The notes under the pieces were generated by a model. It had not been told where the DNA came from. It worked only from the letters and a program-made list of their open reading frames with translations, and searched no databases. Below are positions 1,852 to 48,068 of a stretch of DNA of 54,180 bases, one piece after another; position 1 is the stretch's first letter; every line of letters starts with the position of its first letter. A program made the position numbers and the translations under genes. The DNA lies in IMG/VR virus record IMGVR_UViG_3300009073_000006, positions 1 through 54,180 of that record; one strand, given 5' to 3'. The stretch comes from a virus.

Positions 1852-1878
1852 GCGAGAATTTACGATACAACAACCAAT

Positions 1879-18698: not shown

Positions 18699-18724
18699 AT
18701 TAGAGCAACGATAGCTTATCTAAA

Positions 18725-18762
18725 CAGCACAGGCTTCCTCCCAGCTTGTGCTGTTTTTGTTT
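18725..18762 (+). terminator. rho-independent terminator
   Basis: CAGCACAGGCT, loop TCCTCCC, AGCTTGTGCTG, then TTTTTGTTT. Confidence 0.75.
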
Positions 18763-18897
18763 GGAAAATTAACGTGTATTTACACGAATTTGGCGGGGCA
18801 AAAAAGTGAACCGAAGGTGAAGCGCAAGCTTCGCCGTAGCGTGAAACGCGATGCTCCGACAAACTTGGTGTCAATATCGTTAATAAAGGTTCCAAAC
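18759..18897 (+). repeat. intergenic palindromic element, copy B
   Basis: 139 bp. Outer stem GTTTGGAA/TTCCAAAC, left arm TTACACGAATTTGGCGGGG, right arm AACTTGGTGTCAAT..AAGGTTCC. Confidence 0.8.
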
Positions 18898-18923
18898 TAA
18901 AAGAGTATTAAGGAAACAAAAAC

Positions 18924-24177: not shown

Positions 24178-27100
24178 ATGACCGAAAGTATTTTCATTGA
24201 CCCGCAAGAGTTTGCTAACGAAGAAATAGTTAATTATCATCGAGAGCGTCGTCGCAATCAGAGGATTAGTGCGGGTTCAATAGCCTTTGCGCCTGTCGGG
24301 GCTGTAGCTGGTGGTTTAGATACTATTGGACAAAGCTTAGGTATTGTAGACGATCAAGACTTTGAAAGATTCTTTAACGGTCTAAACGAAAACGCTGGCG
24401 ATATGTATAAGCGCAACAAAGTGGGCTATCGTTTTGCAGGCGATGTAGCTAGTATGTTTGTAGGCGCTGGGGCAGCAAGTAAGTTGTTACGATCTGGCGG
24501 AATGATAAGTAGTGTTTTGCAAAAAGGTGGTAGTGTTGGTCGAGCTATTGACAGAACTGTTTCAATTAATCAAAGCAGAGTAGATGATCTTGTTCAAGAG
24601 TACGCGAAGTTTAGTGAGGTTGTTGGAAGCAACGCTGCGCCGGGTACTACCACATTTGCTCACGGAAGAAAGCTGCGTAGTCAGGCACGCCTTGCAACAG
24701 CAGCTAATGATTTAAGGGGTGGTTTGGCGGCAGAAGCGTTTATCTTTGGCGCTATGAGTGAAAGCGAGTTATTCTTTCCAGAAGGTCAGAAGACTAGCGA
24801 TATGGTTTATATGTCAGCGGCAGGATTAGGTTTAGGTGGTGCGCTAGGTCAGTTGTTTATTACGCCCGCGTTAAAGCGTGCTGGTGGTCGTGCTGCGCGT
24901 GAAGCGTTAGAGCGTGGAGATATCATTTCAGACGACGCTGGATTAGACTTAGTAACTGCTAGTAAAATTATCGACGAGACTTCACTCGGTGTTCCTGTTG
25001 ACATACTAGCTGACGCGCCAGAATTGCAAGGTACTTTTAATAATCTAAATTCTGCGGCCCAGAATAATGCACGTAAAGCTACTGAACAATTAACAGAAAA
25101 CTCACCGTTAGGTGGTATGTCTAGTAATGTCACAGTCACGCAAGGCGTTGTTGATACTGTTTTAGATGTAGCGCGCGGGAATGATAAAATGATCGCTAAT
25201 ACATTAAGTATTGAAACTGGCGATACGTTGTCTGATTTTGTTAACAAAAGCGCAGCCGCGGTTAAGAAGTTAGAAAAACAACGCGACGAGTTAAAGGCTT
25301 CGCAAGCTGATGCGGCTAATGATGCGTTACGGAATAAACTTAACGGTGAGTTGATTGATATTGATACGCAGATTAAAAACCTACAAGGTGATGCTTATGC
25401 TGTGCGTGTTAGTAGCGTTGGTAACTTGTCAACTAATCCTAACCAGCCTACTATTTTCGACGGCGGTAAAGTTAAAGTATCTAAAGTTAACAACAAAGTC
25501 AAAGGCGCGGGTAATGAAGTGTTTTACGCTTCAGAGGGTAGCAAGGATACTACTTTAGGCGTGACTACTGACGGTCGAATTGTTCGTGGAAATAAGCAGA
25601 TTAGCACAACGGCTGGTTTAAGTGTTCGCGAGATGACTAAACCCTACGCTGCTATGGCAAGAGCGCAAAAAAACTTAAGCAAAACTTTAGCCGATGATAG
25701 TATCATAGTTAAATCTCGCCACAAGATTACAAAAAACAGTAATCACATGACGTTTGATTATATAATCGAAGCGGCTAAACGTTTGAACTTAGAAGACGAT
25801 TTAAGTCCGTTGGATAAAATGTTTGACACTAGTGAGTTTGGAACTCTTAGTGCTTTGAAAAAGGCTAGTTTAGACGCGAAGCTTAAAGAGTTTGGTAAGT
25901 TAAAAGCTGCGCAACTTAAAGCACTAAAGTCGGGACAAGACCTGTATAACAGCGAGTCTATTGGTGCGATTTTAAATCTAAAATTTAGTGATAACTTTAA
26001 CAGCAATAACTACTCTTTGCAGTGGTTTGAAGATTTATACCGTGCAGGTAAAAAGACTGTAGGTAATGACTACGTTGAGGCGATGGAAGACTTTAAACAG
26101 CATCTTAGTCTGGGCAGCACTAAAGGTACTTCCGCGCATTTGCTTGCGGAAAAAGGCACAGGGATTGAAAGATTAATTGAGACTGATTTATTTAAACGCC
26201 TGAAAAATCCGCAAGAACCTTTGACATTTATTGTCAGCAAAAGCGGTCGTGTTGATAACAGTATGTTTGATACGCATAACTTAATTGATATTAAAAAGCG
26301 TCACGAACAATTACGCGAAAACGAATTAGGTGAAGCTGTTCGGACTACTGCTGGCGCAGAAATGTTTGGTCAAATTGATGATGCGTTAATTAATAGCCCG
26401 ATGTTGACTAAAGCGATGCGTGATGGAAGTAAGGTTATCTCACAAGACGCTGTTGATCAACCGTTGTTTGATAAGTTCGGTCAGCTTACGCCGTTTAGTT
26501 TGAATTATTTATTGCGTGGTGTTGAAGGTGCTGACAGTGCTGGAATTATTGCGGATATCTGGCAAAGACAAGCTAAAGTTTTTGCTGCGAATGAATTAAA
26601 AAATAATACTAAAGCTATGAACAAGCTGCGCGTTAAAGGCAATGAAGAAAGTGCTGCAAGATTTCTGCATTATCATTCTGCTATGCAACAAGGCTGGGTT
26701 TTAGCTGATAATTTTGTTGAAAGCGGCAGAAGAATTAAACTCGAACCTGAAAACAAAAAGAATAAAAAGATAGCAGAACAAATGGGACTTAAACAAGTTC
26801 CTGAGTTTATGCCTGATCCAGTTGCACGTAATGGTGTACCGTTAATTATGGATGAATTATCGCTGGCTGCTTTGGCAGAAGTGCGACGCTTTAGTGATAT
26901 GCGATGGAGTATGGATAACGTTTTAGCAAAGCACCTAGGTCGCAGTGGTTTGCAATATCGCAATGGTCACACTATTGAGCCTAGTCGTTACGGTAAAGAA
27001 ATGGTGTTTATTACTGACGAGTTTGGTAAGGTAGTGGATTATATTACCGAAGGTAATATTGTTCAAGGTAAGAAACTGGCTAATCAAAGGATTGCCGAAC

Positions 27101-29331
27101 TTATGAGGCAGCGATCTCAAGGAGATCAATTAGAAGTTGTTGTTAACGGTAAAACTGTAATTAATGAAGGTGAAAAAGTTCCAGTTTACAATGAGAAGGG
27201 TAACGGTGTTTACGGCATCGTTACTCGTGACGAGGTTGGTAAGTATAAGCAGGCTCACCAGCAAGCTTGGAACAGTGCGTATATTGACATTAGTGATTCT
27301 TGGAAACAAACTAGTGGTAAGAAAGAAGCAGGCGGTCGTTCGGGTTTGTATACTAATACTGATTTTATTGACGGCCAGTTGTTAGAGATTAGTGAGATGT
27401 TTGAAGAATCTGGGCGCAAGTTTATTGCGACTAAGTTCAGCGGCATGTTAGAGAATGTTAAAAACTTGCAACGAGTAGCTAATGTGCAGAAGCAAGGTTT
27501 GAGAAACTTTGTTACTGGTGAAGCTGGCGTAGCGTTTGATGATGCTTATGATATGTTTACTAATCAGTTGTTGAACACTTCGACAAGACATGAGGGTAGT
27601 TTATACGGTAGTTTAGGTATGACTATCGAGCATATTTTTGACACTACTGTTGGTAAGATGTTTGACGGTTTACATAGTATTCCTAAAACTGGCGGTAAAA
27701 AAGGTAACGCTGCGATGCAAGCAGCTTACGAGAAGCTGGCTAAAGAGACTGGATTTGATCCTGCGGAGTACGCTATTCGTATGGCAGAGCGTGGCATGGG
27801 CGAGAAGATGCCGCCAAATATGCTCAAGGTAATGCGCGGCGCTGCAAGCTTCACACAGTCAATGGCTTTGAAGTTTTTTGAAGTTGGTCACGCTGCACTG
27901 ACTAGTGCGAGTATTGCCACAACAGTACCGCATAACGTTGAATGGATGCGTCGTAATGCTGGTGAAAGTGTTGAAGCTTTTAAATCCAGAGTAGGTGTTG
28001 CGGGCGATTTGCTAGATGATGATTTTGCTGTGCCTAACGGCAGCAAGTTAGCTATGACTACGGTTATGAAGCATTTAAAAGGTGAATACAACGACGTGAT
28101 CGGCGAAGCAAGTAAGCTTGGTTATCTTGACAGTCAGATTGCGGAGTTTGTTAATGAATTAACTGCTCCTAGAAAAACTGCGCTGGGCAGAGGTGCTAAA
28201 AAGTTTGGCGACTTCGCGGGGTTGGTTAGTGGAAAATCGGAAGACTACGCAAGAACGATTAGTTTTTTAACTGGTTATGAAATGTTTAGTAAGCAAGGTA
28301 AAATTAATCCGAAAATGGCAATGGCGTTGAGTAATGATTTTGCCAATAAAGTTATTGCAGACTATCGCCCGCATCAAAGAGCCGAGGTTTTTAAAGGCGC
28401 TACTGGTATCCCGTTAGCTATGTTCCAAACGTTTGCGATTAACTACTTCCAACGGTTGTTGCAGAATGTCGAGAACAAACAATGGAAAGCTTTGGCTACG
28501 CAGTATGGTACGCAAGCTTTTGTATTTGGCGGAAGTAGTGTTCCAGGTTTTGAATTTATTAACGAGAAAGTTTTAGAAACTTGGGACGAGAAAGCTAGAC
28601 CAGAAGATTTAGTTCGTGATGGTTTTGGTAAAGGCTTGTCTGATGTTTTGCTATACGGGACTTTAGGTAATTTGCCAAAGTTGCTGGGTGCAGATGATGG
28701 ATTAGCGTTTCACACTCGCGGTGAAATGTCAGTGCCGAGGAATATTACCTTTGGCAACTTTACAGAAACACCCGTTGCACAGTTGGTAGCACGCAGCGGT
28801 AGTGCTATGCTTGAAGGGTTTAAAGCTGCGACAAGTAACGGCGATGTTGGTGGCAGGCAAAGACTGCAAGAAAGTTTAATTTACGCGATACCTAATCGTC
28901 CGGTTAAGGGATTGCTAGAGTACGCACAAGGTTACAGTACCAACCGCCGAGGCGAGATAATTAACGATGAAATTTCGGGACTTTACAAGTTTGCTCAACA
29001 GGTCAGCGGATTGAAAGCGTTGAGGGATGCTGACAAGGCCGCAGCGCTGTGGAGAGATCAGGAAACGCAAATGAGCCAGCGGAGTAGCATGTCACGACTA
29101 AGCGCATCTGTTGAGGCTGGTATGAGGGCTGGAGGGGTAGGTAATTTTTCATCAGGACAGATACAAACAGTGATGGAAAGATACTTTGCAAATGGTGGTA
29201 GTCCGCGAGGATTTAAAAGATGGTATCGTGAGCGGTTAATGCGTAGTCAGTATAGTCGAAGTGACCGAGCGTTACTTAGAGCGCTCGGCCAAGGTGATCG
29301 TGGTCAGGATATTTTGAGGTTTGCTGATTAA
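24178..29331 (+). CDS. giant internal virion / ejection protein
   Basis: 1717 aa and the last gene of the late arm, analogous in size and position to T7 gp16-class proteins. No enzymatic motif recognised. Confidence 0.45.
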   Translation: MTESIFIDPQEFANEEIVNYHRERRRNQRISAGSIAFAPVGAVAGGLDTIGQSLGIVDDQDFERFFNGLNENAGDMYKRNKVGYRFAGDVASMFVGAGAASKLLRSGGMISSVLQKGGSVGRAIDRTVSINQSRVDDLVQEYAKFSEVVGSNAAPGTTTFAHGRKLRSQARLATAANDLRGGLAAEAFIFGAMSESELFFPEGQKTSDMVYMSAAGLGLGGALGQLFITPALKRAGGRAAREALERGDIISDDAGLDLVTASKIIDETSLGVPVDILADAPELQGTFNNLNSAAQNNARKATEQLTENSPLGGMSSNVTVTQGVVDTVLDVARGNDKMIANTLSIETGDTLSDFVNKSAAAVKKLEKQRDELKASQADAANDALRNKLNGELIDIDTQIKNLQGDAYAVRVSSVGNLSTNPNQPTIFDGGKVKVSKVNNKVKGAGNEVFYASEGSKDTTLGVTTDGRIVRGNKQISTTAGLSVREMTKPYAAMARAQKNLSKTLADDSIIVKSRHKITKNSNHMTFDYIIEAAKRLNLEDDLSPLDKMFDTSEFGTLSALKKASLDAKLKEFGKLKAAQLKALKSGQDLYNSESIGAILNLKFSDNFNSNNYSLQWFEDLYRAGKKTVGNDYVEAMEDFKQHLSLGSTKGTSAHLLAEKGTGIERLIETDLFKRLKNPQEPLTFIVSKSGRVDNSMFDTHNLIDIKKRHEQLRENELGEAVRTTAGAEMFGQIDDALINSPMLTKAMRDGSKVISQDAVDQPLFDKFGQLTPFSLNYLLRGVEGADSAGIIADIWQRQAKVFAANELKNNTKAMNKLRVKGNEESAARFLHYHSAMQQGWVLADNFVESGRRIKLEPENKKNKKIAEQMGLKQVPEFMPDPVARNGVPLIMDELSLAALAEVRRFSDMRWSMDNVLAKHLGRSGLQYRNGHTIEPSRYGKEMVFITDEFGKVVDYITEGNIVQGKKLANQRIAELMRQRSQGDQLEVVVNGKTVINEGEKVPVYNEKGNGVYGIVTRDEVGKYKQAHQQAWNSAYIDISDSWKQTSGKKEAGGRSGLYTNTDFIDGQLLEISEMFEESGRKFIATKFSGMLENVKNLQRVANVQKQGLRNFVTGEAGVAFDDAYDMFTNQLLNTSTRHEGSLYGSLGMTIEHIFDTTVGKMFDGLHSIPKTGGKKGNAAMQAAYEKLAKETGFDPAEYAIRMAERGMGEKMPPNMLKVMRGAASFTQSMALKFFEVGHAALTSASIATTVPHNVEWMRRNAGESVEAFKSRVGVAGDLLDDDFAVPNGSKLAMTTVMKHLKGEYNDVIGEASKLGYLDSQIAEFVNELTAPRKTALGRGAKKFGDFAGLVSGKSEDYARTISFLTGYEMFSKQGKINPKMAMALSNDFANKVIADYRPHQRAEVFKGATGIPLAMFQTFAINYFQRLLQNVENKQWKALATQYGTQAFVFGGSSVPGFEFINEKVLETWDEKARPEDLVRDGFGKGLSDVLLYGTLGNLPKLLGADDGLAFHTRGEMSVPRNITFGNFTETPVAQLVARSGSAMLEGFKAATSNGDVGGRQRLQESLIYAIPNRPVKGLLEYAQGYSTNRRGEIINDEISGLYKFAQQVSGLKALRDADKAAALWRDQETQMSQRSSMSRLSASVEAGMRAGGVGNFSSGQIQTVMERYFANGGSPRGFKRWYRERLMRSQYSRSDRALLRALGQGDRGQDILRFAD

Positions 29332-29386: not shown

Positions 29387-29641
29387 CTATTGAGGTTCTT
29401 GACATGATGTAGTTCCTTTAGGTGAAAGTTTAGGTGAGAGTAGTGTGTTGTTTTTCTCGCAGAGAATTTTGGCAAAAGTTAAATCAAGAACTTTGCCGAT
29501 TTGTTCTCCGTCGAGGTAGCAATAAAAAAAATCTCCTTGTTTTTCGATTGAGTAATGTACGGGTGCTAATCCGTGGTGAGAAGGTGATTCGATAACGAGG
29601 TTGTTATGGTTTGTCCATGATAGTGCTGAGGTAGTTGTCAT
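29387..29641 (-). CDS. hypothetical protein (84 aa)
   Basis: Start trimmed to MTTTSALSW (ATG 29641), which forms an ATGA overlap with the stop of the upstream 42-aa ORF. Confidence 0.45.
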   Translation of the reverse strand: MTTTSALSWTNHNNLVIESPSHHGLAPVHYSIEKQGDFFYCYLDGEQIGKVLDLTFAKILCEKNNTLLSPKLSPKGTTSCQEPQ

Positions 29642-29766
29642 AATAAAAACTGGATAACAAACTGGATAATTTTTGAGATAAATGATATCGCAGCAAAACC
29701 GCATAATAGAACAGCCACTACTATGAAAAACGCTGTTGGTGTGTTAGTGTGTTTTTTATTAGACAT
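29638..29766 (-). CDS. small membrane peptide (42 aa, not in the ORF track)
   Basis: AGGAGAAAACAA then ATG. Translation: MSNKKHTNTPTAFFIVVAVLLCGFAAISFISKIIQFVIQFLL. One transmembrane segment. Confidence 0.45.
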   Translation of the reverse strand: MSNKKHTNTPTAFFIVVAVLLCGFAAISFISKIIQFVIQFLL

Positions 29767-29790
29767 TTGTTTTCTCCTGTTAAAAAGTTA

Positions 29791-29931
29791 TAAATGGAAC
29801 CTTTGGTTAGTGTGTTGACTACCTAGTTTACGCGTGGACCGCCTACGGCTGTGCCGAAGCTACGCTTACGGCTTTGCCTCCATCTATTTCCCCGCGAAAA
29901 TTCGTAGTCAACACACTAACCTTTCCATTTA
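29791..29931 (-). repeat. intergenic palindromic element, copy D (reverse orientation, best preserved)
   Basis: 141 bp. Perfect 18-bp inverted repeat GGTTAGTGTGTTGACTAC / GTAGTCAACACACTAACC, plus the outer stem TAAATGGAA/TTCCATTTA. Confidence 0.85.
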
Positions 29932-29938
29932 AACTTGT

Positions 29939-30598
29939 TTAATTATCTAGCATGTTGTCGGTGATGGTATCGTACAACGCCATATCAAAATCATACAACG
30001 CTTTAGCGTCGGCCAAAGCTTCGTGCTTACTAGTGTCGGGGCGAAAATCGGCGGCAAGACCGTGATACCTGTGGACGTCACGAAGCGAACAACCTGAACC
30101 ATAGTGCCAAGGCAATCTAGGCGCTTTTCTGTCTTGAGGTTTAGCAAACGGTAACTTGCAAGACCTCTCAAGTATCCCGATATCGAAGTTACCCCATGTG
30201 AACACGGTGTGATTTTCACGTGACATTAACGGGTTGTAGTCAGACGCCACCATAGTGAACATTGAATAATTGCAAAACTCAATGCAATTAATTATACTCT
30301 CTGCTAGTTCTTCCAAAGCTTCGCTTAGATGAACTCCGTGCTCAAATGAGTGCAAGTAACGCGAGTAAAGTTCTTTGTCTTTCAGCCATTGGATAGTTTC
30401 TGGATCAGACTTGCCGCCTTGTGGTAAGATAAAATCACTAAACTCGCCAATTTTTCTACCATCAATAACAATCACTGCACCGATTTCCCAAACGTTGCAA
30501 CCTGCTGTAGTTCCATCTGTTTCAATGTCGAGGTAGGTTTCGATTTTTGGCTTGTGAAGTATAGCCACGTTAGATGTTTCAGTAGATGTATCAGTCAT
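29939..30598 (-). CDS. DEDDh 3'-5' exonuclease (DnaQ-like)
   Basis: Start trimmed to ATG 30598 (AAGGAG 6 nt upstream). ExoI YLDIETDG, ExoII TWGNFDIGIL, ExoIII HEALADAKAL. Confidence 0.7.
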   Translation of the reverse strand: MTDTSTETSNVAILHKPKIETYLDIETDGTTAGCNVWEIGAVIVIDGRKIGEFSDFILPQGGKSDPETIQWLKDKELYSRYLHSFEHGVHLSEALEELAESIINCIEFCNYSMFTMVASDYNPLMSRENHTVFTWGNFDIGILERSCKLPFAKPQDRKAPRLPWHYGSGCSLRDVHRYHGLAADFRPDTSKHEALADAKALYDFDMALYDTITDNMLDN

Positions 30599-30624
30599 GT
30601 TTTTCTCCTTGGGGTTGTTGTTAA

Positions 30625-32049
30625 TCATTCCATAAACTTGCCAAGCAAAGTCGCAGCTTTACCTTTTTGTTCTCTTACTCTGTTTTTGCTAAATGACTTG
30701 TCAAATTTACCGTGGATTTTATTACGCTCTTTTACTTCGTCACTTAATGTAGGCATAACAATATCAATTTTCTGGCCTTCGTGTTGCTTAGTAGCTAGTT
30801 TGCAAAGCCCGTTTGTACAGAAGGCGTTTAACGCAGCCTCAAACTCTCTAACCTGCATGTCACGTAGCATGTTGCTGCGCAGTACCGACACCGAAACTCC
30901 CAGCGGCCAAGATGAAGTTATCATTTCTCGCATGTGTTGTTTAGCGATAGTTATTTTGTCTAAGCCGATCTCTCCTAAGCTTGCTGCCATGTTTATTTCG
31001 GTGGCTTCTAAGATCACTTGTGCGTCTGCTACATCACGGGGCAGTACCTCGTCACGGTTTTCTCCGGCGGCCAAGACCATGCAAAGCTTGATTAAATGGT
31101 CTTGCCTACGCTGGTCGTAGTGTTGAAAACGACTGTCATTAATCTTCGAAGTATATCCAAAATATAACTTAGTCATTATCTCGACAGTTTGATCTGCCAT
31201 TGAAAATTCGCCGATAAAGTTAAACGCTTTATTCAAAGCTTCACCGACGACAGCTTCCAGTTTTTTATCTAACTCGGGCGCGGGAAATACCTTGGGTCTA
31301 GCTACCCCTTCATAAACCATGATAGCCCTAGACGTAAAACCCTGCCCAACACTTTGCGGAGGTAAATGCGCAGCTAAACTTGTCGGGGTAATGCACCCTA
31401 ATAAATTCAAATAAGGATAATCAATATCTCTGGTTTCTTTTGATAATGTGTATTGATAATCTGCTGGACAGTAATAAATCTCTGTCAGAAAGTTAATCAT
31501 CTCGATCTGGTTTAATCCGATCAGCGTAGCTAACTCGTCAGCAAATATAAACAAACTTCTCGAAGTTACGTTATCATAATCATACGATCTGGATTTAGGT
31601 GCTTTAGCCTTAGCTGCTCTGTGCTTTGCAAACGCATCTGCGACAGGATTGTTTGTAATCTCTGGGTCAGTTATCATATCGGATATCTCGTCAGCTAGTT
31701 CTTCGTTTTTAGCTGACTGTCCGTAGGCATTGTAAAAAGAACTTAACAAACCTTGCTTTTTACCTGCGGTATCTGTTGGTCCGAATTTACAATTAGTGTA
31801 TTTTTCTAGTAGCTTTTTGCCTAAAGAAGCTGCTGACGATTTTCTAACCGCCGCAGGTCCGACGAGAAAAATATACATATTACTGAAATGATTAAACCGT
31901 CCAACTTGCAAAGAGTTATCACGATCTAAACATGCGGCCAAGGTACTGATACCTGACCACATATTAAAGATCAAAGGACTTTCTGAATTACCGCAGTAGT
32001 CCAGCCAATCTTTGATAAACTTGTTATGAATATCGTCGGAGTTTAGCAT
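30625..32049 (-). CDS. P-loop NTPase, putative replicative (SF3/D5- or DUF3987-like) helicase
   Basis: Walker A is LVGPAAVRKSS and Walker B is LFIFADEL. 474 aa in the replication module. Subfamily unverified. Confidence 0.5.
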   Translation of the reverse strand: MLNSDDIHNKFIKDWLDYCGNSESPLIFNMWSGISTLAACLDRDNSLQVGRFNHFSNMYIFLVGPAAVRKSSAASLGKKLLEKYTNCKFGPTDTAGKKQGLLSSFYNAYGQSAKNEELADEISDMITDPEITNNPVADAFAKHRAAKAKAPKSRSYDYDNVTSRSLFIFADELATLIGLNQIEMINFLTEIYYCPADYQYTLSKETRDIDYPYLNLLGCITPTSLAAHLPPQSVGQGFTSRAIMVYEGVARPKVFPAPELDKKLEAVVGEALNKAFNFIGEFSMADQTVEIMTKLYFGYTSKINDSRFQHYDQRRQDHLIKLCMVLAAGENRDEVLPRDVADAQVILEATEINMAASLGEIGLDKITIAKQHMREMITSSWPLGVSVSVLRSNMLRDMQVREFEAALNAFCTNGLCKLATKQHEGQKIDIVMPTLSDEVKERNKIHGKFDKSFSKNRVREQKGKAATLLGKFME

Positions 32050-32130: not shown

Positions 32131-32589
32131 TTAGATCAGCGGGTGATGGTTAGACAACATTATCTGCGCAAGCTTACTTGCGTTTTCAACTGAATGATTA
32201 CCTTGTTGTTTTTCGGGAATATCAAACTCACCGATACCACGCATTTCAGAACTAACAAACATAGCTACGCTCGATGCGAGCAAAATAAAATGAGGTAAGC
32301 CTGAGTGTGCGTCGTAATGTTCACCGCCCATGATAGCGCGTGTGTGCCGATCTACTGAATTAATCAGGTCGGTTTGATTGAGACCCTTTTCCCAGTTGCG
32401 GGCAGAGTATTTTTCTCTATCGTAGTTTAATCCTGCGGCTGCGGCACAGATCAATTCATAAGGGACTAGCGATGTGTCAATTTTTGTCCCGATACTGGCA
32501 CGCTGTGCGCCGCTTTCGCGTTCGGGTTGTGAAGCTTTAACTTTAACGGTTGCTTTAGCTTCGGCTTTAGTTTTTCTTTTCTTAGTCAT
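32131..32589 (-). CDS. MazG-like all-alpha NTP pyrophosphohydrolase (DUF5664 / dATP-dGTP diphosphohydrolase-like)
   Basis: REKYSARNWEKGL....SVDRHTRAIMGG....SGLPHFILLASSVAMF fits the remembered KYG.RNWEKG / S..RH signature. Confidence 0.5.
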   Translation of the reverse strand: MTKKRKTKAEAKATVKVKASQPERESGAQRASIGTKIDTSLVPYELICAAAAGLNYDREKYSARNWEKGLNQTDLINSVDRHTRAIMGGEHYDAHSGLPHFILLASSVAMFVSSEMRGIGEFDIPEKQQGNHSVENASKLAQIMLSNHHPLI

Positions 32590-32775: not shown

Positions 32776-33477
32776 TTACGCTTTAGCTTTAGATTTACCT
32801 TCGGCAGGCTCTTCGTCTTCAAGCACCAAAACAGGCGCTTCTTGCACTGCTTCATAAGCGCAGCAAAACAACTCGCCCATTTTCTCATGGTACTCACTGG
32901 AAAACAATCCGCCAACACCGCCAAGATAACCCGGCGCGTTACCGCCTTTATGACGCAAAGGTGATTGCCCGCGGTTCAAGAAAGCACTGTGCATTAGCCC
33001 AGAAGCGCAACACATATTATCCAAAACAGCCGCGTTCATTTGACCAGTGACAGAATTAAACGCGTTAGTTGTTTCACCTACGCTACCGTCTGGGTTACAC
33101 TGTTCAAACAAAGGCTGGCCCATGTCGTTGTGTTTCTGTGTACCTGACAACGGTTGGTTGTGTCCGATAGTAGACAACGGATCACCGCAAGGTTCGCAAC
33201 GCGCTACTGGTGAAACAAGTTGCAGCATGCGTTCTAGCATTAACATCACCGCAGCTTTAGCCGCAGGCGTCATGGCTAGTTCATCGACACAAAAATCAGG
33301 AACACACTGGCACGGTTCGCAATCCGCTAGTGCTTTATCAAATTCGCAAGGTTCAATGTGGATAGGAATATCGCACGCAGGACGAACAACAAAGTGATGC
33401 ACATCTGGGCAACATTCATTGACGTGGTTAATTGGTTCACAACTTGGCAGTGACGGGGGGTTGATATCTTTAGCCAT
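32776..33477 (-). CDS. Cys-rich hypothetical protein
   Basis: 233 aa. Repeated CEP/EPC motifs (SCEPINH, ECCPD, EPCEF, DCEPCQC, RCEPCGD). The start overlaps the DNA polymerase stop by 8 nt. Confidence 0.55.
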   Translation of the reverse strand: MAKDINPPSLPSCEPINHVNECCPDVHHFVVRPACDIPIHIEPCEFDKALADCEPCQCVPDFCVDELAMTPAAKAAVMLMLERMLQLVSPVARCEPCGDPLSTIGHNQPLSGTQKHNDMGQPLFEQCNPDGSVGETTNAFNSVTGQMNAAVLDNMCCASGLMHSAFLNRGQSPLRHKGGNAPGYLGGVGGLFSSEYHEKMGELFCCAYEAVQEAPVLVLEDEEPAEGKSKAKA

Positions 33478-36412
33478 GAGTTAGAAGTCCTTCATCAGAG
33501 TAATTGTTTAAAAGGTTAATCACAAGTTCTGCGTTAGTGTGGTTAGGTTTAATCTCTGGCATCTTTTTAGACCAGCGATGCCCGACGTTTACTTCGCAAG
33601 GTACTTTGTAATTTACTCCGTTAAAGTTACACTGTAATTCCATCATTGTCAAGATGTAATCTATTAAAGTTCTCTCTTTAAGTACCTCGACTGGTACTTG
33701 ATAAGTTAAACTGTCGTGTGTTTGCAGTAACAAGTCGATGTTATGCTCACGCATGAATGTTGAGTTATCGTCTGCTACTGCAACATGCGGTTTGCCGACT
33801 TGATCCAAGTTACCGTAATACATTCTAATCATGGCTTCGTTGATCATGCCTGCTGTACCGCCTTGGCCGTAGAAAGCAAGTAACGCGCGTGTTAAACTAG
33901 CATGTTCACCGCGTCGTTTGTAGTCGTCAAAGTAAACAGTTAACCCGCCAAAGCAAGTAACTAAACCTTCGTTATCTATGCACTGTTGCAGGATATCTTT
34001 ACGCCAAGGTTTTTGTTGCGAGTATTCTTCGAAGTAAGGTATCATAACAAAGTCGCAGAATTGATAATAGTCTTCTCTCGACCAAGTTGAAGGGTCTAAG
34101 CCCAAGGCTACTGCTGCGGCGGCTAAAGCTTCCTTACCTGCGTTGACGTAAACGGTGTGTGCAGTCATGCCGTAGTTACCGCCGTGAGTGAGTTTTTTAA
34201 TAATCTGCCGTAAGCCTGTGATCGGATGATTCATTATTGCGTTCTCGGCTTCGTCGTCAGACTTGCGCAGGCGCATACCTTCTTCATAAGGCAGTTGTAA
34301 GATAGTCTCAACATGAACGGTGTGAGTATCACGATCATCAAACACATTTTTCATCATGTTTTTATCGCCGCAAGCTACCGCGAAATGATACAAGTCAGCT
34401 TGTGAGTAGTCGATATCTAATAAGACTTTACCATCGTCTGCGGTCATAAAGCTGCGCATTTTTGCAGATATGTTTTGAACGTTACTGCCTTTCCAGAAAC
34501 TACTGCCACGACAGTTGAGTCGTCCAGTATAAGGCGCTAATCCGTAACCGTAGGTCATGCGACCATGATGGGGTTTAAGTGACTGATACATTTCAATTTG
34601 CTTTTTAGGCTCGCGATGTGCGCGTATGTACTCAATCGCTTTATCGAAGATAGGATGCTGTTCTGCAACAAGGATTAGTTGTTTCTGGTCTACCGAAAAG
34701 CTAGTCTTGCGATTGGGTTTTTTCGGCGGGGGATTAGCACCTAGTGTGTGATATAGCCAATTAACAACTTCGGTATCGGTGTCAGTTTTAACAACGTGGT
34801 TAGAGGCTTTTTGCAAATCAACTAGTGCTTCGCTGGATTTTTTGCGGTGTCCTGCTAGTAACCTGTGCAGTTCTGGCGTGTCCATTTTCATGCCTTTGAA
34901 GTTTGTCTCAAACAAAGGCCCGCGCATTAGTGCGTATTCTTTAGCGTAATTATAACCCGCCCAAGAATTACCGTTCACTAACTCGATTAGTTTTAAAAAC
35001 GCGGTCATGCACATATGCGTGTCTAGCCCAGCGTACCGCCAGTAAATCATTAACCCTTGTCGAGTAACAGGAACGGCGTATTTTACTTGTGTTTTCTTCT
35101 CACCACTACCGCCCTTGATTTCGTCTTTCCAGAAATAATAATCATCACAAAAGATACTGGCAACAGTTGCAAGGCTCTGCGGCATACGAGCGCGATAGCT
35201 GTGCCACATTAACATAGTATCATAATTCAAACCTGCGCTGGGCATATTGTAAAGCATTGAATAGTGATTGTCGTAGTTACCGTTGTGCCAGATTTTCGGC
35301 GCGTGATGGTTAAGTATCGCATCCAACACCGCTTTAAATGCACCGAAACCTACATACTCATTATCTTGAGCAATCGGTGCAATGTGTGCAACAAGCCAAG
35401 TTTTCATGGTTGATTTATCGTTGTTACTTATCCCTGTCACGCTGATACAGGTAATATGTCCCATAGAAGTTTCAAAGTCTAACGCAAGTAAACACTGCTG
35501 ACTTAACCACTGATGAAAACGATAAGTATTATACCACGATGAATTGACAAGTTTATCAGTAGGTCCAGCTACCGCTGATATAGCGCGGCCACCTAGCGAC
35601 AGAACCTCAAATCTTTCATCAAAGGTATTAGTACAGCAACGAGGGTCTTTGTAAATTCGTTGTAGTTTGTCAATATCATACTCAAAGAACTGACAGGATT
35701 GTGTCTTGCTAACTTCGTCTTTACCTGTGAGGCGGTTAAAATTCGGCGCGTAGCATTTAAAAGCGTCTTCGATAACTATCGCAGGAATACCCGCGAAAAA
35801 CTCGTTTAGATAAATACTTCCACGAAATGCGGCGAGAGTTTTTTTATTACCGTGCCCTGTGCTGCCATGTAGTAAACAAACCAAAACATCAAAATGATTA
35901 ATAACAAATACACTAGCGCGTGGAATATAACTCGAAAGAGCATGAGAGAATAACTCCTGATAGTTATCAGACGGTTGGATTGTTTGTTTAGTTCGCGGTT
36001 TTGTGATCTTGTTTTTAGGCGTGCCTACTGTGACAAAGCGAAGCTTGCGCAGCAAATGAGGGCAACGTTGTTGGAAGATTTTCTTAATATATGATTTTCG
36101 CTTGTCATTTTCGCCAGGCGCTAACAGCCAAACTATGAGGTCTTTACCTTCTTGTTTACTGACTGTTGGTTCGTTACGATCATTAACGCGGTCGGTGGCT
36201 GCTTCGAGATAGTCTTCTTCTGTCATGATATGCGCAGGGCGCACGGCTTCTAGTTTCTCCCACAAGTCGTCTGGTATCTCACTAGCTTTTTTGTCAGTTG
36301 CAAAAAACTTAGGACGGTTTAGCATTGCTGCCATATCTTTATCGTCGTTATCCATGAGCGAGGCTATTCTTTCGATTTCATGTGTGGTAGAATTTGAAGC
36401 TTTTTTTGACAT
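33470..36412 (-). CDS. family A DNA polymerase with 3'-5' exonuclease domain and about 300-aa N-terminal extension
   Basis: Exo motifs LALDFETS, HNGNYDNHY, YAGLDTHM. Polymerase motif A DIDYSQADLYHFA, motif B RQIIKKLTHGGNYGM, motif C LLQTHDSL. Confidence 0.9.
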   Translation of the reverse strand: MSKKASNSTTHEIERIASLMDNDDKDMAAMLNRPKFFATDKKASEIPDDLWEKLEAVRPAHIMTEEDYLEAATDRVNDRNEPTVSKQEGKDLIVWLLAPGENDKRKSYIKKIFQQRCPHLLRKLRFVTVGTPKNKITKPRTKQTIQPSDNYQELFSHALSSYIPRASVFVINHFDVLVCLLHGSTGHGNKKTLAAFRGSIYLNEFFAGIPAIVIEDAFKCYAPNFNRLTGKDEVSKTQSCQFFEYDIDKLQRIYKDPRCCTNTFDERFEVLSLGGRAISAVAGPTDKLVNSSWYNTYRFHQWLSQQCLLALDFETSMGHITCISVTGISNNDKSTMKTWLVAHIAPIAQDNEYVGFGAFKAVLDAILNHHAPKIWHNGNYDNHYSMLYNMPSAGLNYDTMLMWHSYRARMPQSLATVASIFCDDYYFWKDEIKGGSGEKKTQVKYAVPVTRQGLMIYWRYAGLDTHMCMTAFLKLIELVNGNSWAGYNYAKEYALMRGPLFETNFKGMKMDTPELHRLLAGHRKKSSEALVDLQKASNHVVKTDTDTEVVNWLYHTLGANPPPKKPNRKTSFSVDQKQLILVAEQHPIFDKAIEYIRAHREPKKQIEMYQSLKPHHGRMTYGYGLAPYTGRLNCRGSSFWKGSNVQNISAKMRSFMTADDGKVLLDIDYSQADLYHFAVACGDKNMMKNVFDDRDTHTVHVETILQLPYEEGMRLRKSDDEAENAIMNHPITGLRQIIKKLTHGGNYGMTAHTVYVNAGKEALAAAAVALGLDPSTWSREDYYQFCDFVMIPYFEEYSQQKPWRKDILQQCIDNEGLVTCFGGLTVYFDDYKRRGEHASLTRALLAFYGQGGTAGMINEAMIRMYYGNLDQVGKPHVAVADDNSTFMREHNIDLLLQTHDSLTYQVPVEVLKERTLIDYILTMMELQCNFNGVNYKVPCEVNVGHRWSKKMPEIKPNHTNAELVINLLNNYSDEGLLTHG

Positions 36413-43126: not shown

Positions 43127-44914
43127 TTATCCTCGTTCTTGCGGTATATCAAAATCAATCTTTTTCTTTTCACGCTTTAGCTTTGCTAGATAATTCTCGA
43201 TCTTTTCTGAAAGAGTATCACCTTTAATCAACTGACTGCGCAAAGCTTTCTTTACTGCGACGTTAGTCGTCAATAGAATAATATTATCCTGCGCACGCGT
43301 TACCGCTGTATATAGCATTTCCCTGTTTAACGCTTTAGCGTGGCTCGGATGCAATAGCACATAAACATTCCGCGCACTTGAACCTTGGGCGATATAAACA
43401 GTAATCCACCAACCAAGCTGCACGTTAGTAATCTGCGTTGACTGGTGCATCTGGATAAGATAATCCAACCCGTCTTTACTATCCTCTTCAAGATAATCAA
43501 ACTGCGTTTTAATGCTGTGACTGGCCATGCGTTTACGCGTGCCGTCCTCGTCTTCCGGCTCGTCAGGTAGTTCTTGTTGCCTACCAAAGCCTGTCAAGTT
43601 AAAGCTGCTAAGTTTTGCTTGCGTTGCCTTGTCGCGTTGCTGCTTTTCAAGATCAGTAACGGCTTTGTTTAGTTCGTCTTCTAAATCAAGTTTTTGTTGT
43701 TCAGACTGTAAACCAGTGTCACTAAACTTAGCCATGCCAGCGTTGAGATTAATCTCTTTTATCTCGCCACACATACCATTAGTCACGCCGATTTCATAAT
43801 CATTCTTTCGATTAACTACTCTATCACCAACCGCAAAGCGTTCAATACCGTGCATTGTTCGGATACTTTGCACAGGGTTATCTGGGTTTAAATACACCCT
43901 TGCTTTGACGTTAAGAACCTCTTGACCTAGCAAGCCTACGTTTTGCGGGGTAATTAACAGATCAAGGTCAGGATCATATCGACCCTCGTTATATTCTTTT
44001 TGAATAAAGTTAGTAACAAACCGTGAAGCTTCTAGTTCATCCTTTGGAATAGCAACCGCACGGAAGTTTTCGTTAATCGAGGGGTTGTCTCCCGTGCGGA
44101 TTTTGTTCGCGTTGTCGATTAAGTCACCGTCTTTTTGACGATAAATTGTCCTTAGTTCTTGAGTAGGCCATGAGTTGATTAGCAACGGAAAGCTTGGCGT
44201 GTCTAATACAGGCGTTAGCTGTGCTAAGTCACCAATGCAGATAATCCGGCAATCTTTGTCCAACGCTTCAAACAGTTTGCTTAACAGGCTCATACCTGCC
44301 ATAGATACCTCGTCGATAACTACAACATCAAAAGGCAACTGTTTGTCAGCATTGCGGCGAGGTATCATCACGCGTTTTTCAATAGGCTCGCCTACATAAT
44401 CCGCCTTGCGTTTTTCCACGTCGTCTTTTGTGGCTTTAACTTCGACAACGTCAGGACCGTAATCTAATAGCTTGTGAATTGTATAACAATAGGGCTTGTA
44501 AGCGTTATCCACGCTGCGCTGAATAGTATTGGCCGCTTTAGCTGTGAAAGCACAAATGCCGATTGATAATGATTTAGTGTTATGCTTTAAATGCTCTGGC
44601 GGTATACGGTTACGATCCATAAAGCTTTTCACAATGCCACGATCTGCTAACGTGCTGATAAGTTTCATGACAGTTGAGGTTTTACCCGTTCCCGCCGAAC
44701 CGACAATATTACAATACTGCGCACTACAACCTAACTCGACTGCCGCTAATTGGTCAGCGTCTAGTTTTAAATCTTTGCGGGTTGGTTCGCTGGGTTCTTC
44801 TGGTATCTCAATATCATCAACGATCTCTGTTTCAGGCATTGAGGCTAGTTTGTCGCGTTCGAGTTGTTCTGCTTTTTGTTTAGCTAGTGCTTTAGCTTTT
44901 TCCAGAAAATTCAT
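43127..44914 (-). CDS. SF1 RecD/Dda-like DNA helicase
   Basis: Walker A GSAGTGKTS, Walker B VVIDEVSMAG, motif III ICIGDLAQLTPV, motif V VYIAQGSSARNVYVLL, motif VI LYTAVTRAQDNIILL. Confidence 0.85.
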   Translation of the reverse strand: MNFLEKAKALAKQKAEQLERDKLASMPETEIVDDIEIPEEPSEPTRKDLKLDADQLAAVELGCSAQYCNIVGSAGTGKTSTVMKLISTLADRGIVKSFMDRNRIPPEHLKHNTKSLSIGICAFTAKAANTIQRSVDNAYKPYCYTIHKLLDYGPDVVEVKATKDDVEKRKADYVGEPIEKRVMIPRRNADKQLPFDVVVIDEVSMAGMSLLSKLFEALDKDCRIICIGDLAQLTPVLDTPSFPLLINSWPTQELRTIYRQKDGDLIDNANKIRTGDNPSINENFRAVAIPKDELEASRFVTNFIQKEYNEGRYDPDLDLLITPQNVGLLGQEVLNVKARVYLNPDNPVQSIRTMHGIERFAVGDRVVNRKNDYEIGVTNGMCGEIKEINLNAGMAKFSDTGLQSEQQKLDLEDELNKAVTDLEKQQRDKATQAKLSSFNLTGFGRQQELPDEPEDEDGTRKRMASHSIKTQFDYLEEDSKDGLDYLIQMHQSTQITNVQLGWWITVYIAQGSSARNVYVLLHPSHAKALNREMLYTAVTRAQDNIILLTTNVAVKKALRSQLIKGDTLSEKIENYLAKLKREKKKIDFDIPQERG

Positions 44915-44974: not shown

Positions 44975-45238
44975 TCAAGACGCGTTTACAAGGTCAGGCA
45001 GATCATTTTCGTCTACGTCGTCCTTGGCATATGTGACAACAATGCGCTTATTCCGCATAGCCCAATGGCAATGTTTAGCAAGCTTTGCTCGACCCTCTTT
45101 TGTGTTCACGTTAACAACGAAAGCTTTTTCTGGTTCATCGTTATCTTCGGAAATTTGCCTGTCAACGTGATAAGTTTCTACGATGATATACCAAGGCTGG
45201 TTATGCGGGATAATGCGATTTTGATTGTTTGAAGTCAT
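44975..45238 (-). CDS. hypothetical protein
   Basis: 87 aa. TAATG overlap with the upstream gene. Confidence 0.5.
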   Translation of the reverse strand: MTSNNQNRIIPHNQPWYIIVETYHVDRQISEDNDEPEKAFVVNVNTKEGRAKLAKHCHWAMRNKRIVVTYAKDDVDENDLPDLVNAS

Positions 45239-45438
45239 TATTTAGTTCCTTTGAGAAGTTTCATTATAGAAACGAAAGTTACAGTGATTAAAAACAATGA
45301 AACCCCCGCGCCGCTTAATCCCACGGCAGCCTCGCCTAACCATGAGTCGTCTGTAACTACCGCAACTATGAACAACGGAATTGAGCCTAGCATTAAGCAT
45401 AAAGATACATCCAGACTTGTTGTTATATACTTTTGCAT
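45238..45438 (-). CDS. small membrane protein (two TM segments)
   Basis: 66 aa with an AAGGAA RBS. Hydrophobic stretches LCLMLGSIPLFIVAVV and AAVGLSGAGVSLFLITVTFV. Confidence 0.55.
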   Translation of the reverse strand: MQKYITTSLDVSLCLMLGSIPLFIVAVVTDDSWLGEAAVGLSGAGVSLFLITVTFVSIMKLLKGTK

Positions 45439-45459
45439 TATTTAGTTCCTTAGTCAAAT

Positions 45460-45596
45460 GTTAATGGAAAGAGGTTAGTGTTGACAACGTATTTTTCGCG
45501 GCCAAGACTGACCAGAGGGAAGGCATCGCCTGACCGTGGGCAAAGCCCAGCCGCTAAAAACTTGGTTGTCAATATTAACCGCAAGGTTCCATTAAC
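45460..45596 (+). repeat. intergenic palindromic element, copy C (antisense to flanking genes)
   Basis: 137 bp. Outer stem GTTAATGGAA/TTCCATTAAC, left arm GGTTAGTGTTGACAACGTATTTTTCGCGG, right arm AACTTGGTTGTCAATATTAACCGCAAGGTTCC. Confidence 0.85.
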
Positions 45597-45605
45597 CATT
45601 TACGG

Positions 45606-45800
45606 TTAATATATTTCCTCAACTGTAGTTCTAAACAGCTTTGGGTTTCCTCTTGGTCGCTGAATTAGTGTATTAAATTGATATTTTCCATCTACTTTAT
45701 TTAAAGGCCCTGCTTCTGACGTTATTTTTGCAACTTCTTCTGCTGCGGTTAAACTTTCATACATTAATGCTTCTGCAAATCTTTTATGCGGCTTTGACAT
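45606..45800 (-). CDS. hypothetical protein
   Basis: 64 aa with a GGAAGAAAG RBS. Confidence 0.5.
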   Translation of the reverse strand: MSKPHKRFAEALMYESLTAAEEVAKITSEAGPLNKVDGKYQFNTLIQRPRGNPKLFRTTVEEIY

Positions 45801-47047: not shown

Positions 47048-47088
47048 ATTCCCTGCCTTTACAACTCTTTTATGGTCTTCGCACGGCT

Positions 47089-47116
47089 ATTCTATCAGCT
47101 ATCTCGCGCGTTGCAA
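47089..47116 (-). promoter_or_regulatory. sigma70-like promoter for the middle/replication operon
   Basis: The minus strand reads TTGCAA, a 16-nt spacer, then TAGAAT. The -10 lies about 40 nt upstream of ATG 47047, and the -35 abuts iteron cluster 1. Confidence 0.5.
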
Positions 47117-47121
47117 GCCTT

Positions 47122-47657
47122 AAATTACATAAAATTACGTCAAAATTACACCAAAATTACACACTTTTTCACACTCACCCCCCTATGACCCTCGTTTTCA
47201 CGAAATCACTAGTTAACCTACACTTTTACACCCTATTTATGTCGATTATTGAGTTTAACCTGCTATTCAGCGTGGTTTTAGTGGTCCGCGAGATAACCCT
47301 TGGCAGTTTTTTGGGGTTCAATAAATTTTGTAATGTTATGTAATTCTCTGTAATTTATTAAGTTTATACCTTTAACATACCTCTTTAACACGCTTTTTGC
47401 GAAGCGCTTAAATGCTTAGTTAACTTGTTAGCCCGCACACCTAAAATTAACAAATTACACACAATTACATAACATGACAGGCTTAATTTACTACCCCCAA
47501 ACCTACGATCTACCCCTGTTTTGGCTGTAAACACTACTGTTTTTGCCCTAAAAGGGGGTTCAAATGCGGGTTTAACGCGTTATTTGGTGAAATATAGGGT
47601 CATAGGGGGCGGAGGGGTCTCAGAAACGTGTAATTCTGGTGTAATTCTCTGTAATTC
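47122..47657. repeat. four clusters of phased 8-nt iterons (AAATTACA / TGTAATTT), 13 copies
   Basis: Cluster 1 (+) starts at 47122, 47132, 47143, 47154. Cluster 2 (-) starts at 47329, 47339, 47349. Cluster 3 (+) starts at 47444, 47452, 47462. Cluster 4 (-) starts at 47629, 47640, 47650. Spacing is mostly 10-11 bp (one 8-bp interval in cluster 3). Confidence 0.85.
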
Positions 47658-48005
47658 TTGCCGTGAGCGCCTCATAGAACGCGGTTAGCCTCTGAACCAC
47701 CCTATGATCTAGCTTTTGCCCTAGCTGCGTTGTGTGAGGCTATTTTCGCGGTCCTTGCACGATCTATGCACGATCTAGGCCAGACATTGCCCCAGCCCTG
47801 TCCTCCGACACGGCAATCTTGAATTACACAAAATCAAACTTTTAACTTTTGGGATAAGCTTTCACTACTTCGCATTTTTGGCTTTGAATATTCTCTTTTT
47901 ATTAGTGTTTTCAATAACTTTAAACAAACTAGTGTTGAGTGATCTTAAAACTTAATTATGTAACTTTTGGTGTGTTTTTTCACTACCTCAAACCGCTTTT
48001 TACAC

Positions 48006-48038
48006 ACAAAAAAGGCGACTAACCTAAGCCAGCCGCCT
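48006..48038 (-). terminator. rho-independent terminator ending the early operon
   Basis: The minus-strand RNA reads GGCGGCU GGCUUAGGUU AGUCGCC followed by UUUUUUGUGUGU. It lies 30 nt after the stop of gene 48069. Confidence 0.6.
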
Positions 48039-48068
48039 AATCTTGTTTTTCTTTATCGCTTTGCGATA

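Follow-up and report, generated by a model that had tools for sequence, protein, structure and literature searches.

Why does a phage genome carry several copies of a long imperfect palindrome between its genes, and what in these palindromes is kept by selection? The question is raised by the locus around 29,791-29,931 of the IMG/VR virus record IMGVR_UViG_3300009073_000006, whose whole stretch of 54,180 nucleotides (nt), from an uncultured freshwater phage, is called the window below. Dispersed structured palindromes are well known in bacteria, such as the REP, ERIC and Correia elements, and as the RNase III sites of phage T7. An initial annotation, made from the letters of the window, had described four intergenic loci (A to D) with shared ends. 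As presented below, they belong to a genuine, previously uncatalogued family of structured intergenic elements, found only in one phage clade, whose hairpin is kept intact by many compensating mutations. Regarding their function, the reading that we prefer, at a probability of roughly 0.4, is that of transcribed, cis-acting intercistronic RNA processing and stability hairpins, comparable to the T7 RNase III sites or ERIC.

Identification of the elements

The covariance model of the family (R1) was run on the window with filters off and E-values up to 10, and it retrieved exactly four copies, with scores of 97-124 bits (Table 1); the next-best matches were the reverse strands of D and C (26 bits), followed by noise at or below 13 bits. 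The four loci of the initial annotation are therefore real at essentially the positions it had given, with refined limits for copy A. The motif AAGGTTCC has four exact occurrences in the window, one per element and none elsewhere. The left end of copy A had been misaligned, as its TTCGCGGGG (at about 1712-1722) corresponds to the outer closing stem and not to the inner ATTTTCGCGG of B-D, and a degenerate fifth copy suggested at 47729-47828 was not detected under the same search settings, this region being made of TGTAATT iterons. The model was also applied to regions fetched from the contigs of seven related uncultured phages (about 50 kb each), reached via capsid and polymerase homologues, where 18 further copies were found, giving a total of 22 copies in 8 phages. 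Four copies absent from the training of the model were still recovered, with 91.6, 62.8, 49.5 and 32.2 bits.

Each element of the window folds into one long hairpin, the forward-strand z-scores being -4.7 to -7.3 relative to shuffled sequence. Copy D has a minimum free energy of -64 to -65 kcal/mol, with a z-score of -7.3 on the minus strand, which is the strand of the element, and of -10.2 on the other strand. Its arms form an inverted repeat of 25 nt at 88% complementarity, including the perfect repeat of 18 base pairs (bp) noticed before (29805-29822 and 29904-29921). The cores have a GC content of 53-66%, compared to 42.5% for the genome, in agreement with the GC-richness first remarked; their supposed free divergence is not seen, since they are type-specific and conserved between orthologues, those of D being nearly identical in three phages.

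Covariation and selection on the hairpin

In the MAFFT alignment of 18 copies, with its RNAalifold consensus, 80.4% of the cells pair; sliding the 3' partners by 1-3 columns lowers this share to 33-48%. Changes on both sides occur in 28 of the 40 pairs, and none of 500 shuffles attains any of five measures. When all 22 copies are aligned, 88.7% of the cells pair versus 35-41% after sliding, with both-sided changes in 39 of 47 pairs; this second alignment was fitted to the covariance model and so leans towards the structure, and the MAFFT alignment is independent of it. Considering single helices in the 22-copy alignment, both sides were altered in 10 of the 11 pairs of the outer stem (helix 1) and in seven of the eight pairs of P2 (helix 5). 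The copy-specific, complementary outer pairs of B, C and D, from which the initial annotation had proposed compensatory change in favour of a long closing stem, are present, and the proposal is borne out by the further homologues and extends from the outer stem to the whole hairpin.

The same pattern is seen when orthologous copies are compared. Between the window and the relative L011, the cores of copy C are almost identical and the outer helices are wholly different yet complementary (GGUUAGUG/UAUUAACC versus CAAACUAGUA/UACUAGUUUG). Orthologous D and C copies are 76-82% identical, versus 65-72% for the adjacent polymerase and primase DNA. The D orthologues of L011 (15787-15932) and L012 (9975-10121) reach 80-82% compared to 65-67% for the flanking polymerase/primase DNA, and the C orthologue of L011 (51-195) reaches 77-80%, with its stem rewritten by compensatory changes. 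Selection on the whole hairpin is strongly confirmed by these observations.

Architecture of the conserved fold

All 22 copies have one architecture in common, in elements of about 145-160 nt. The closing stem of about 11 bp consists of about 7 bp that are mostly copy-specific, followed by GGAA/UUCC (GGA/UCC in the A subtype), and it leads to an asymmetric internal loop, whose 5' side counts 1-5 nt and whose 3' side reads AAAGG, GCAAGG or ACGAAGG. Next comes a helix of 16-18 bp, whose outer half is freely variable and whose inner half pairs UU[G/U]AC with a nearly invariant GUCA(A). It is followed by a conserved internal loop that reads ACG[A/U]A in the 5' strand and (AAA)CU[U/C]GG(U) in the 3' strand. 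Above this ACGWA/CUYGG loop, a short A-U helix and then a G-C helix reach the apex, a three-way junction formed by a purine-rich 5' strand, with recurrent AAGG/GGA motifs, and two mini-hairpins, P2 and P3. P2 has 5-9 bp, with C(GUA)G or C(GCA)G as the usual closing loop and GCAA (as in copy B) or GUAA in some copies, GNRA tetraloops and GNA triloops being swapped at the same apex among copies. P3, with 3-5 bp, comes after a G(C/U)AG linker. The 3' arm of the family has the consensus aAaCU.GGu.GUCaA ... AaGgUuCc, and in every copy scanned 110-120 nt separate the TTKAC box from the end of AAGGYYCC.

The box of the left arm, TT[G/T]AC[A/T], is always a good variant of a -35 box, and the elements could be seen as host sigma-70 promoters, with TTGACA, TTTACA or TTGACT set in a regulatory palindrome. 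Copy B would suit this role, as it comes after a terminator and the gene behind it has no other promoter candidate, and divergent pairs of copies would resemble divergent promoters. However, the segment 17 nt downstream reads AAnAGn (AATAAG, AATAGA, AAGACT, AACAAC etc.), usually without the essential T at -7, and it falls inside a covarying helix or junction, while the consensus promoter scan flags no forward site in any element. A transcript from such a start would also be without the 5' arm, so that covariation along the whole hairpin would go unexplained, and in the 22-copy alignment the GUCAA partner is more invariant than the TTKAC box. A promoter function is, in our estimate, very improbable. 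A role as intrinsic terminator was rejected as well, because no T-run comes after the hairpins.

Strand specificity and orientation to genes

At the paired positions of the model, 34 G-U are found versus 5 A-C over the 22 copies, and the minimum free energy is lower for the forward strand in 17 of them. In addition, the covariance model places the reverse strand 70-100 bits below the forward strand, as seen in the window (97-124 bits forward, at most 26 bits reverse). All 22 copies are strictly intergenic; 16 of them are sense to the flanking genes and six are antisense, namely copy C of the window and of L011, L013 a, L013 c, L014 b and L026 a. The conserved object is, consequently, one specific single strand, which is not always the mRNA strand of the neighbouring genes, because the forward fold is retained in sense and antisense copies. 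This single strand is most likely RNA.

Regarding the sense copies, they start 14-60 nt past the upstream stop codon. On their 3' side, most of them, including those of the relatives, are followed by an unstructured, G-poor and CA-rich leader and then a Shine-Dalgarno sequence, with the ATG 25-85 nt downstream. One copy of L013 (17293-17435) closes the replication operon, at a convergent junction. This setting between genes, like the exchange of GNRA tetraloops for GNA triloops at the apex, is RNA-like and counts for the preferred reading.

Were the conserved strand DNA, the elements would be single-stranded hairpins of the forward strand, extruded or exposed in replication or recombination and acting as priming, nicking or recombination signals or as hairpin promoters. 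Cases of this kind are the G4/phiX-type single-strand initiation signals, the promoters of the N4 virion RNA polymerase and Frpo of the F plasmid. Such a signal would be consistent with strand-specific folding regardless of gene direction (8 G-T versus 1 A-C in the antisense copies) and with the C(GTA)G or C(GCA)G closure of most P2 hairpins, a GNA type known for unusually stable DNA mini-hairpins; the invariant GTC of the 3' arm also resembles primase recognition triplets. Moreover, the phage encodes its own primase-helicase, a Dda-like helicase, a PD-(D/E)XK nuclease and an AAA_24 ATPase. Nevertheless, no layout of origin and forks fits all orientations, since A, B and C lie on the top strand and D on the bottom strand, and the relatives carry divergent and convergent pairs a few dozen nt apart. 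The sign of the GC skew flips only with gene direction, near 29.4 kb and 50.5 kb, mirroring the gene layout without an extra switch, and a replication-linked orientation of the elements was rejected for this reason. No phage RNA polymerase was detected, the 1717-amino-acid (aa) protein of the virion module (24178-29331, plus strand) having neither a Pfam domain nor a sequence match to any PDB structure. The nick consensus TACTRTGMC of phage tf, a LUZ24-like relative, is not enriched (3 found versus 1.2 expected), blastn against plasmid sequences gives no similarity, and the unpaired or branched centre of 60 nt would make cruciform extrusion from the duplex unfavourable. A DNA hairpin seems unlikely to us.

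An orientation independent of the neighbours is also what autonomous RNA genes have, and the elements might then be stable, trans-acting small RNAs, working as a sponge or decoy (for RNA polymerase like 6S, the ribosome, CsrA-like regulators or a defence protein) or as a guide through the type-specific core. The conservation of these cores between orthologues and the recurrent AAGG/GGA of the purine-rich junction strand would agree with it, and the long hairpin with a bubble is similar in shape to 6S RNA. On the other hand, the terminator that abuts copy B leaves no room for a promoter before it, no terminator-like T-run is found after the elements, and Rfam gives no match, including 6S, Y RNA and CsrB/Rsm. 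The pairing with the anti-Shine-Dalgarno sequence is no better than for shuffled sequence (-7.65 versus -7.85 kcal/mol), whereby a Shine-Dalgarno-like ribosome decoy was rejected. A trans-acting RNA is therefore considered quite unlikely.

Distribution, inheritance and mobility

The A-type copy occupies the gap between the portal and scaffold genes in all five phages for which this gap was fetched (the window, L005, L006, L007 and L008), down to 45% capsid identity. Other copies are found after the primase gene, after or before the helicase gene, and at a convergent junction, the sites after primase and helicase being those where the small-gene content varies among the relatives. Between 1 and 5 copies per phage occur in the regions fetched. 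The model found no copy in the Polaromonas phage Tiera or the Caulobacter phage Kuura.

Outside of this clade, the family was looked for in several collections. For the whole window, Rfam 15 gives no gathering-level match (including ribozymes, 6S, Y RNA, CsrB/Rsm and phage motifs), in line with the statement of the initial annotation that no known family was recognised. At E-values up to 10 over D and A, only a partial freshwater-2 match (21 bits, gathering threshold 49.9), which falls on the downstream Shine-Dalgarno sequence and ATG, and rox2 (17 bits) appear. Pattern scans of IMG/VR produced two chance matches inside capsid-like coding sequence and then none, and two such scans over the reference genomes of 185,579 species of bacteria and archaea, a collection that may lack the true host, gave 0 candidates and, with the looser pattern, 8, all eight rejected by the model. 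Blastn of D against 5,426 complete Escherichia coli genomes, which carry ERIC and REP, had no match at E-values up to 0.01. A metagenome scan with the capsid profile returned just two remote loci, and a homologue search with the 800-aa protein returned the query alone, so that the comparison comprises no orthologues of the B locus. No description of this repeat family was met in a short literature search, Rfam and the sequence collections searched.

Regarding the relationships among copies, clustering by locus is observed in close relatives (D of the window, P11 and P12 at 80-85%; C of the window and P11 at 77%), together with clustering by genome, as P5 a, b and c are mutual nearest neighbours though 13 kb apart, and P14 b and c likewise. 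A back-to-back inverted pair is present in L026 (2146-2285, minus strand, and 2341-2477, plus strand), and inverted pairs surround one small gene in L013 (a/b), two in L011 (C/E) and four in L013 (c/d); L014 has one convergent pair. Direct repeats at the boundaries, whose calling from minimum free energy is noisy, measure 0-7 nt and share neither length nor sequence, and the flanks of the hairpin are complementary to each other rather than directly repeated. In addition, the 40 open reading frames (ORFs) of the window that were scanned have no transposase, HUH/Y1, RAYT-like or integrase domain. From these clustering patterns and from the lack of a fixed-length direct repeat and of such domains, the family is seen to pass down vertically and to be duplicated now and then into other intergenic positions, in either orientation, the route being likely recombination rather than classical transposition.

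Many of these features would be expected as well of a selfish, non-autonomous mobile palindrome of the REPIN or MITE kind, whose fold is what a mobilising enzyme recognises, with no gain to the phage: the variable copy number, the paralogue clusters within genomes, the two orientations, the back-to-back or cargo-flanking inverted pairs (L026, L013 a/b, L011 C/E) and the location at variable small-gene junctions after helicase and primase genes. MITEs are known in viral genomes (PMC11602168), which counts for this explanation. Against it, copy A is fixed at a single locus across the clade and evolves via compensatory substitution, orthologous cores are better conserved than coding DNA, and neither a consistent target-site duplication nor a mobilising domain was found in the ORFs scanned. 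Furthermore, no copy was found in the reference species, plasmid or E. coli sequences searched, and the viral MITEs described so far have cellular counterparts. A purely selfish spread of the elements seems unlikely to us.

Comparison with known systems

The elements are closest in their behaviour to the T7 RNase III hairpins and to ERIC/Correia, and membership in any of the systems compared is not supported. The hairpins of the T7 group (R0.3, R1.1 and others) are likewise phage-borne and intercistronic, with several paralogous copies per genome; they too are built from a lower and an upper stem separated by an asymmetric internal loop, and they are placed between gene modules, ahead of the leader of the following gene. 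The present elements, however, are about three times longer, have a branched GC-rich apex and carry the conserved boxes UUKAC/GUCAA, ACGWA/CUYGG and AAGG, without sequence similarity to those sites. The T7 sites all lie on one strand, and the present elements point either way with respect to genes.

ERIC/IRU and Correia (NEMIS) elements are similar as imperfect intergenic palindromes of 100-160 bp in either orientation, with co-transcription into an RNA hairpin being a feature of the bacterial elements. These RNA hairpins affect mRNA processing and stability, in an orientation-dependent manner. In contrast, the elements described here are restricted to one clade of lytic-looking phages and absent from the cellular genomes searched, with no target-site duplication, a three-way-junction core, one fixed syntenic copy and a low copy number. 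The search of the E. coli genomes revealed no sequence homology to the 127-bp enterobacterial consensus, so that membership in ERIC/IRU is not supported. Regarding MITEs, terminal inverted repeats are found in all copies, and no fixed-length target-site duplication was found at the boundaries, no transposase in the ORFs scanned and no cellular counterpart in the genomes searched. The functional analogies first drawn with ERIC/MITE and with T7 remain the best-fitting models, and membership in those families is not supported.

REPINs are also long imperfect hairpins of two inverted arms, with a strand-specific single-stranded fold and duplication within genomes. They differ from the present elements, whose arms are not simple REP units, whose centre is structured and type-specific and whose copy number is tiny; with no RAYT/Y1 transposase or HUH domain in the ORFs scanned, membership in REPIN/RAYT was rejected. 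The PeSL (promoter-early stem-loop) cassettes of T4-type phages, reported by Arbiol et al. 2010, are intergenic regulatory stem-loops that border variable small-gene cassettes and may promote module shuffling. They share with the present family the repeated intergenic stem-loops at the boundaries of such cassettes, but they consist of a canonical early promoter and a short stem-loop, whereas the elements here have no -10 box, form a covarying hairpin of 145 nt and place one copy in the late structural operon. Finally, the attC sites of integrons resemble the elements as imperfect palindromes of comparable size (57-141 bp) that are read in the form of a folded single strand; they also show conserved ends, some unpaired or extrahelical bases and a terminal structure that varies. 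Here, the ends read (U)GGAA ... UUCC(A), with TTKAC/GTCAA as inner boxes, the RYYYAAC/GTTRRRY core is absent, and there is no integrase domain in the ORFs scanned and no cassette array, unlike attC, of which the family is not a member. What sets the elements apart from all these systems is the combination of a phage-only occurrence, a branched core, invariant boxes in covarying helices, a clade-wide syntenic copy and a strand-specific fold in both orientations.

Proposed function

In the preferred reading, the elements would be transcribed within long phage operons and work in cis. The layout of T7 RNase III sites is a lower stem, an asymmetric loop and an upper stem; in the present family, the 11-bp lower stem, the asymmetric loop and the helix of 16-18 bp add up to an intercistronic hairpin that has an internal loop and exceeds the minimum of about 20 bp for such sites. 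This arrangement may be read either by a sequence-specific protein or by a double-strand-specific endonuclease, of the type of the host RNase III. After a cut on the 3' side, the upstream message would keep the hairpin as a protective 3' cap, and the downstream G-poor, CA-rich leader with its Shine-Dalgarno sequence would become free for translation. Expression could then be segmented between modules: portal from scaffold and capsid, head from tail, and replication from the small membrane protein. The paralogues may arise through recombinational duplication, and antisense or read-through transcripts could be the targets of the copies that are antisense to genes. Most LUZ24 promoters resemble those of host sigma-70, and antisense RNAs are made by LUZ24 and other phages (PMC10914365). 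The segmentation of modules would suit this phage, as its distant cultured relatives rely mostly on promoters of the host sigma-70 type, and the clade-wide copy between portal and scaffold suggests a role in setting late-gene expression.

Several observations weigh against the elements being processing hairpins of this kind. A purely mRNA-borne cis element should be sense, as would be expected of T7-type RNase III sites, and six of the 22 copies are antisense. These six keep the forward-strand fold, with 8 G-U versus 1 A-C and a lower forward-strand minimum free energy in five of them; copy C is antisense in the window and also in L011, a relative with a 69% identical polymerase, and no convincing promoter for forward transcription of the antisense copies was found. 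RNase III needs no conserved sequence, so the invariant GUC(A), ACGWA/CUYGG and AAGG point to another or additional partner. The invariant boxes imply a sequence-specific partner, beside RNase III or in its place. The dominant C(GNA)G triloop is also a classic ultra-stable loop of DNA mini-hairpins, and copy B, being directly behind an efficient-looking terminator, may get little read-through transcription.

It is conceivable, although improbable, that the elements constitute a new class of structured nucleic acid, with a biochemical activity of its own or a dedicated partner. This could be a folded RNA capturing a host machine (RNA polymerase, ribosome, RNase or a defence protein) or a strand-specific, single-stranded DNA hairpin copied to new sites by a phage enzyme. 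Either option would explain why the same strand is foldable whatever the gene direction, as well as the presence of invariant boxes in freely covarying helices.

Genomic setting

The window is a complete circular assembly of 54,057 bp, as bases 1-123 recur exactly at 54058-54180, and this repeat is the assembly overlap of a circular or terminally redundant phage genome. An identical contig of 54,057 bp is on record (JGI 3300027509 Ga0209187_1000652). The portal gene (686 aa, JGI gene call) spans the end junction of the window, and the genes are arranged in two blocks, with a divergence near 50.6-51.2 kb and a convergence at about 29.35 kb (Table 1). The cultured relatives are only distant, at 23-30% protein identity, comprising the LUZ24/PaP2/119X-like Pseudomonas podophages, Tiera and Kuura, and a collection of 50,697 phage records has no match to the window at the DNA level.

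Table 1. Positions of the elements, of the parts of copy D and of other features in the window.
Feature	Position	Strand	Description
Copy A	1714-1860	+	97.2 bits; between portal gene (ends 1681) and scaffold-like gene (starts 1921/1936); sense
Copy B	18756-18902	+	111.7 bits; between intrinsic terminator and 18924-19394 gene; sense
Copy C	45459-45599	+	118.9 bits; antisense to flanking genes 45606-45800 (-) and 45238-45438 (-)
Copy D	29787-29933	-	124.2 bits; between exonuclease gene (29939-30628, -) and membrane ORF (29638-29766, -); sense to both
Copy D, 5' arm	29904..29931	-	outer-stem strand TAAATGGAA, then GGTTAGTGTGTTGACTAC holding the conserved TTGAC box
Copy D, core	29830..29896	-	63% GC; purine-rich junction strand, P2 hairpin with C(GUA)G triloop, P3 mini-hairpin (GCC-GUA-GGC)
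Copy D, 3' arm	29791..29829	-	AAACTAGGT, GTCAA box, CACACTAACC, unpaired AAAGG loop, TTCCATTTA closing stem
Intrinsic terminator	18722-18756	+	strong; 14-bp stem and T-run; abuts 5' edge of copy B, inside structural operon
Small membrane ORF	29638-29766	-	42 aa, hydrophobic (MSNKKHTNTPTAFFIVVAVLLCGFAAISFISKIIQFVIQFLL); AGGAG Shine-Dalgarno; starts 21 nt downstream of copy D
SU10-type major capsid protein	2751-4007		
Large terminase	52073-53674		
Family A DNA polymerase	33470-36412	-	
Primase-helicase	30625-32049	-	
Dda-like helicase	43127-44914	-	

Some observations concern the surroundings of the elements. The minus-strand ORFs that flank copy C look genuine. The small membrane ORF after copy D falls below the ORF cut-off of 60 aa, and an analogous membrane ORF of 34 aa after the D copy of L011 (15975-16078) was not picked by the gene caller. 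The leader from copy A to the scaffold-like gene (1861-1920) has no G over about 50 nt and shows a direct repeat of AAACTAATCATC in two copies, then AAACTAAC. The first gene 3' of copy B scores just below the cut-off for the HlyC RTX-toxin acyltransferase family (24.8 versus 25 bits), a borderline match that is odd for a gene within the virion structural module. A TTGACAAGT motif with local palindromes is common to L013 (3060-3100) and L014 (3240-3275). It is located about 70-100 nt past the post-helicase copies and before the amidase gene; this possible promoter or operator was left unflagged by the consensus promoter scan.

Further from the elements, the 1717-aa protein closes the structural block and is conserved across all relatives, at 1690-1757 aa and, in Tiera, at 1845 aa. 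The early block is separated from the replication block by about 1 kb of non-coding sequence (47050-48060), which is dense in iteron-like TGTAATT/AATTACA repeats in both orientations, including an inverted repeat of 47 nt (47320-47366 and 47442-47488), and it is probably an origin or regulatory region. A strong intrinsic terminator (48013-48038, minus strand) ends the early leftward operon, after a 277-aa gene. An odd low-complexity stretch, CGCGCGCGCGTGCGCG then GGGTGTGAGAGAGGGTGTGAGAGAGGGAGAGGGGGGGGGAAGGGG, is found at 51140-51235, immediately before a 272-aa gene that is followed by the large terminase; it could represent the physical end of the genome or a region for packaging. In addition, a 152-aa protein (32131-32589, minus strand), with homologues at the same position in L011 and L012, matches PF18909, the dATP/dGTP diphosphohydrolase N-terminal domain (E-value 6e-17). 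This domain is presumably MazZ-like and tied to base-substituted phage genomes.

Significance

A multi-copy, branched and covarying family of 145 nt, private to a clade of uncultured freshwater podophages, is undescribed in the resources searched. Its orientation in both directions to genes, its one-strand fold, its branched apex junction and the clade-wide synteny of copy A had been overlooked by the initial annotation. With 22 copies in 8 phages, the sequence diversity is enough for a clean structural model, and the covariance model is usable as a metagenome marker of this phage clade. The puzzle that the family poses is that a strand is kept foldable even when it is antisense to genes. Solving it could reveal how such phages segment long host-transcribed operons, or it could reveal a phage-specific mobile hairpin or a new RNA-protein interaction.

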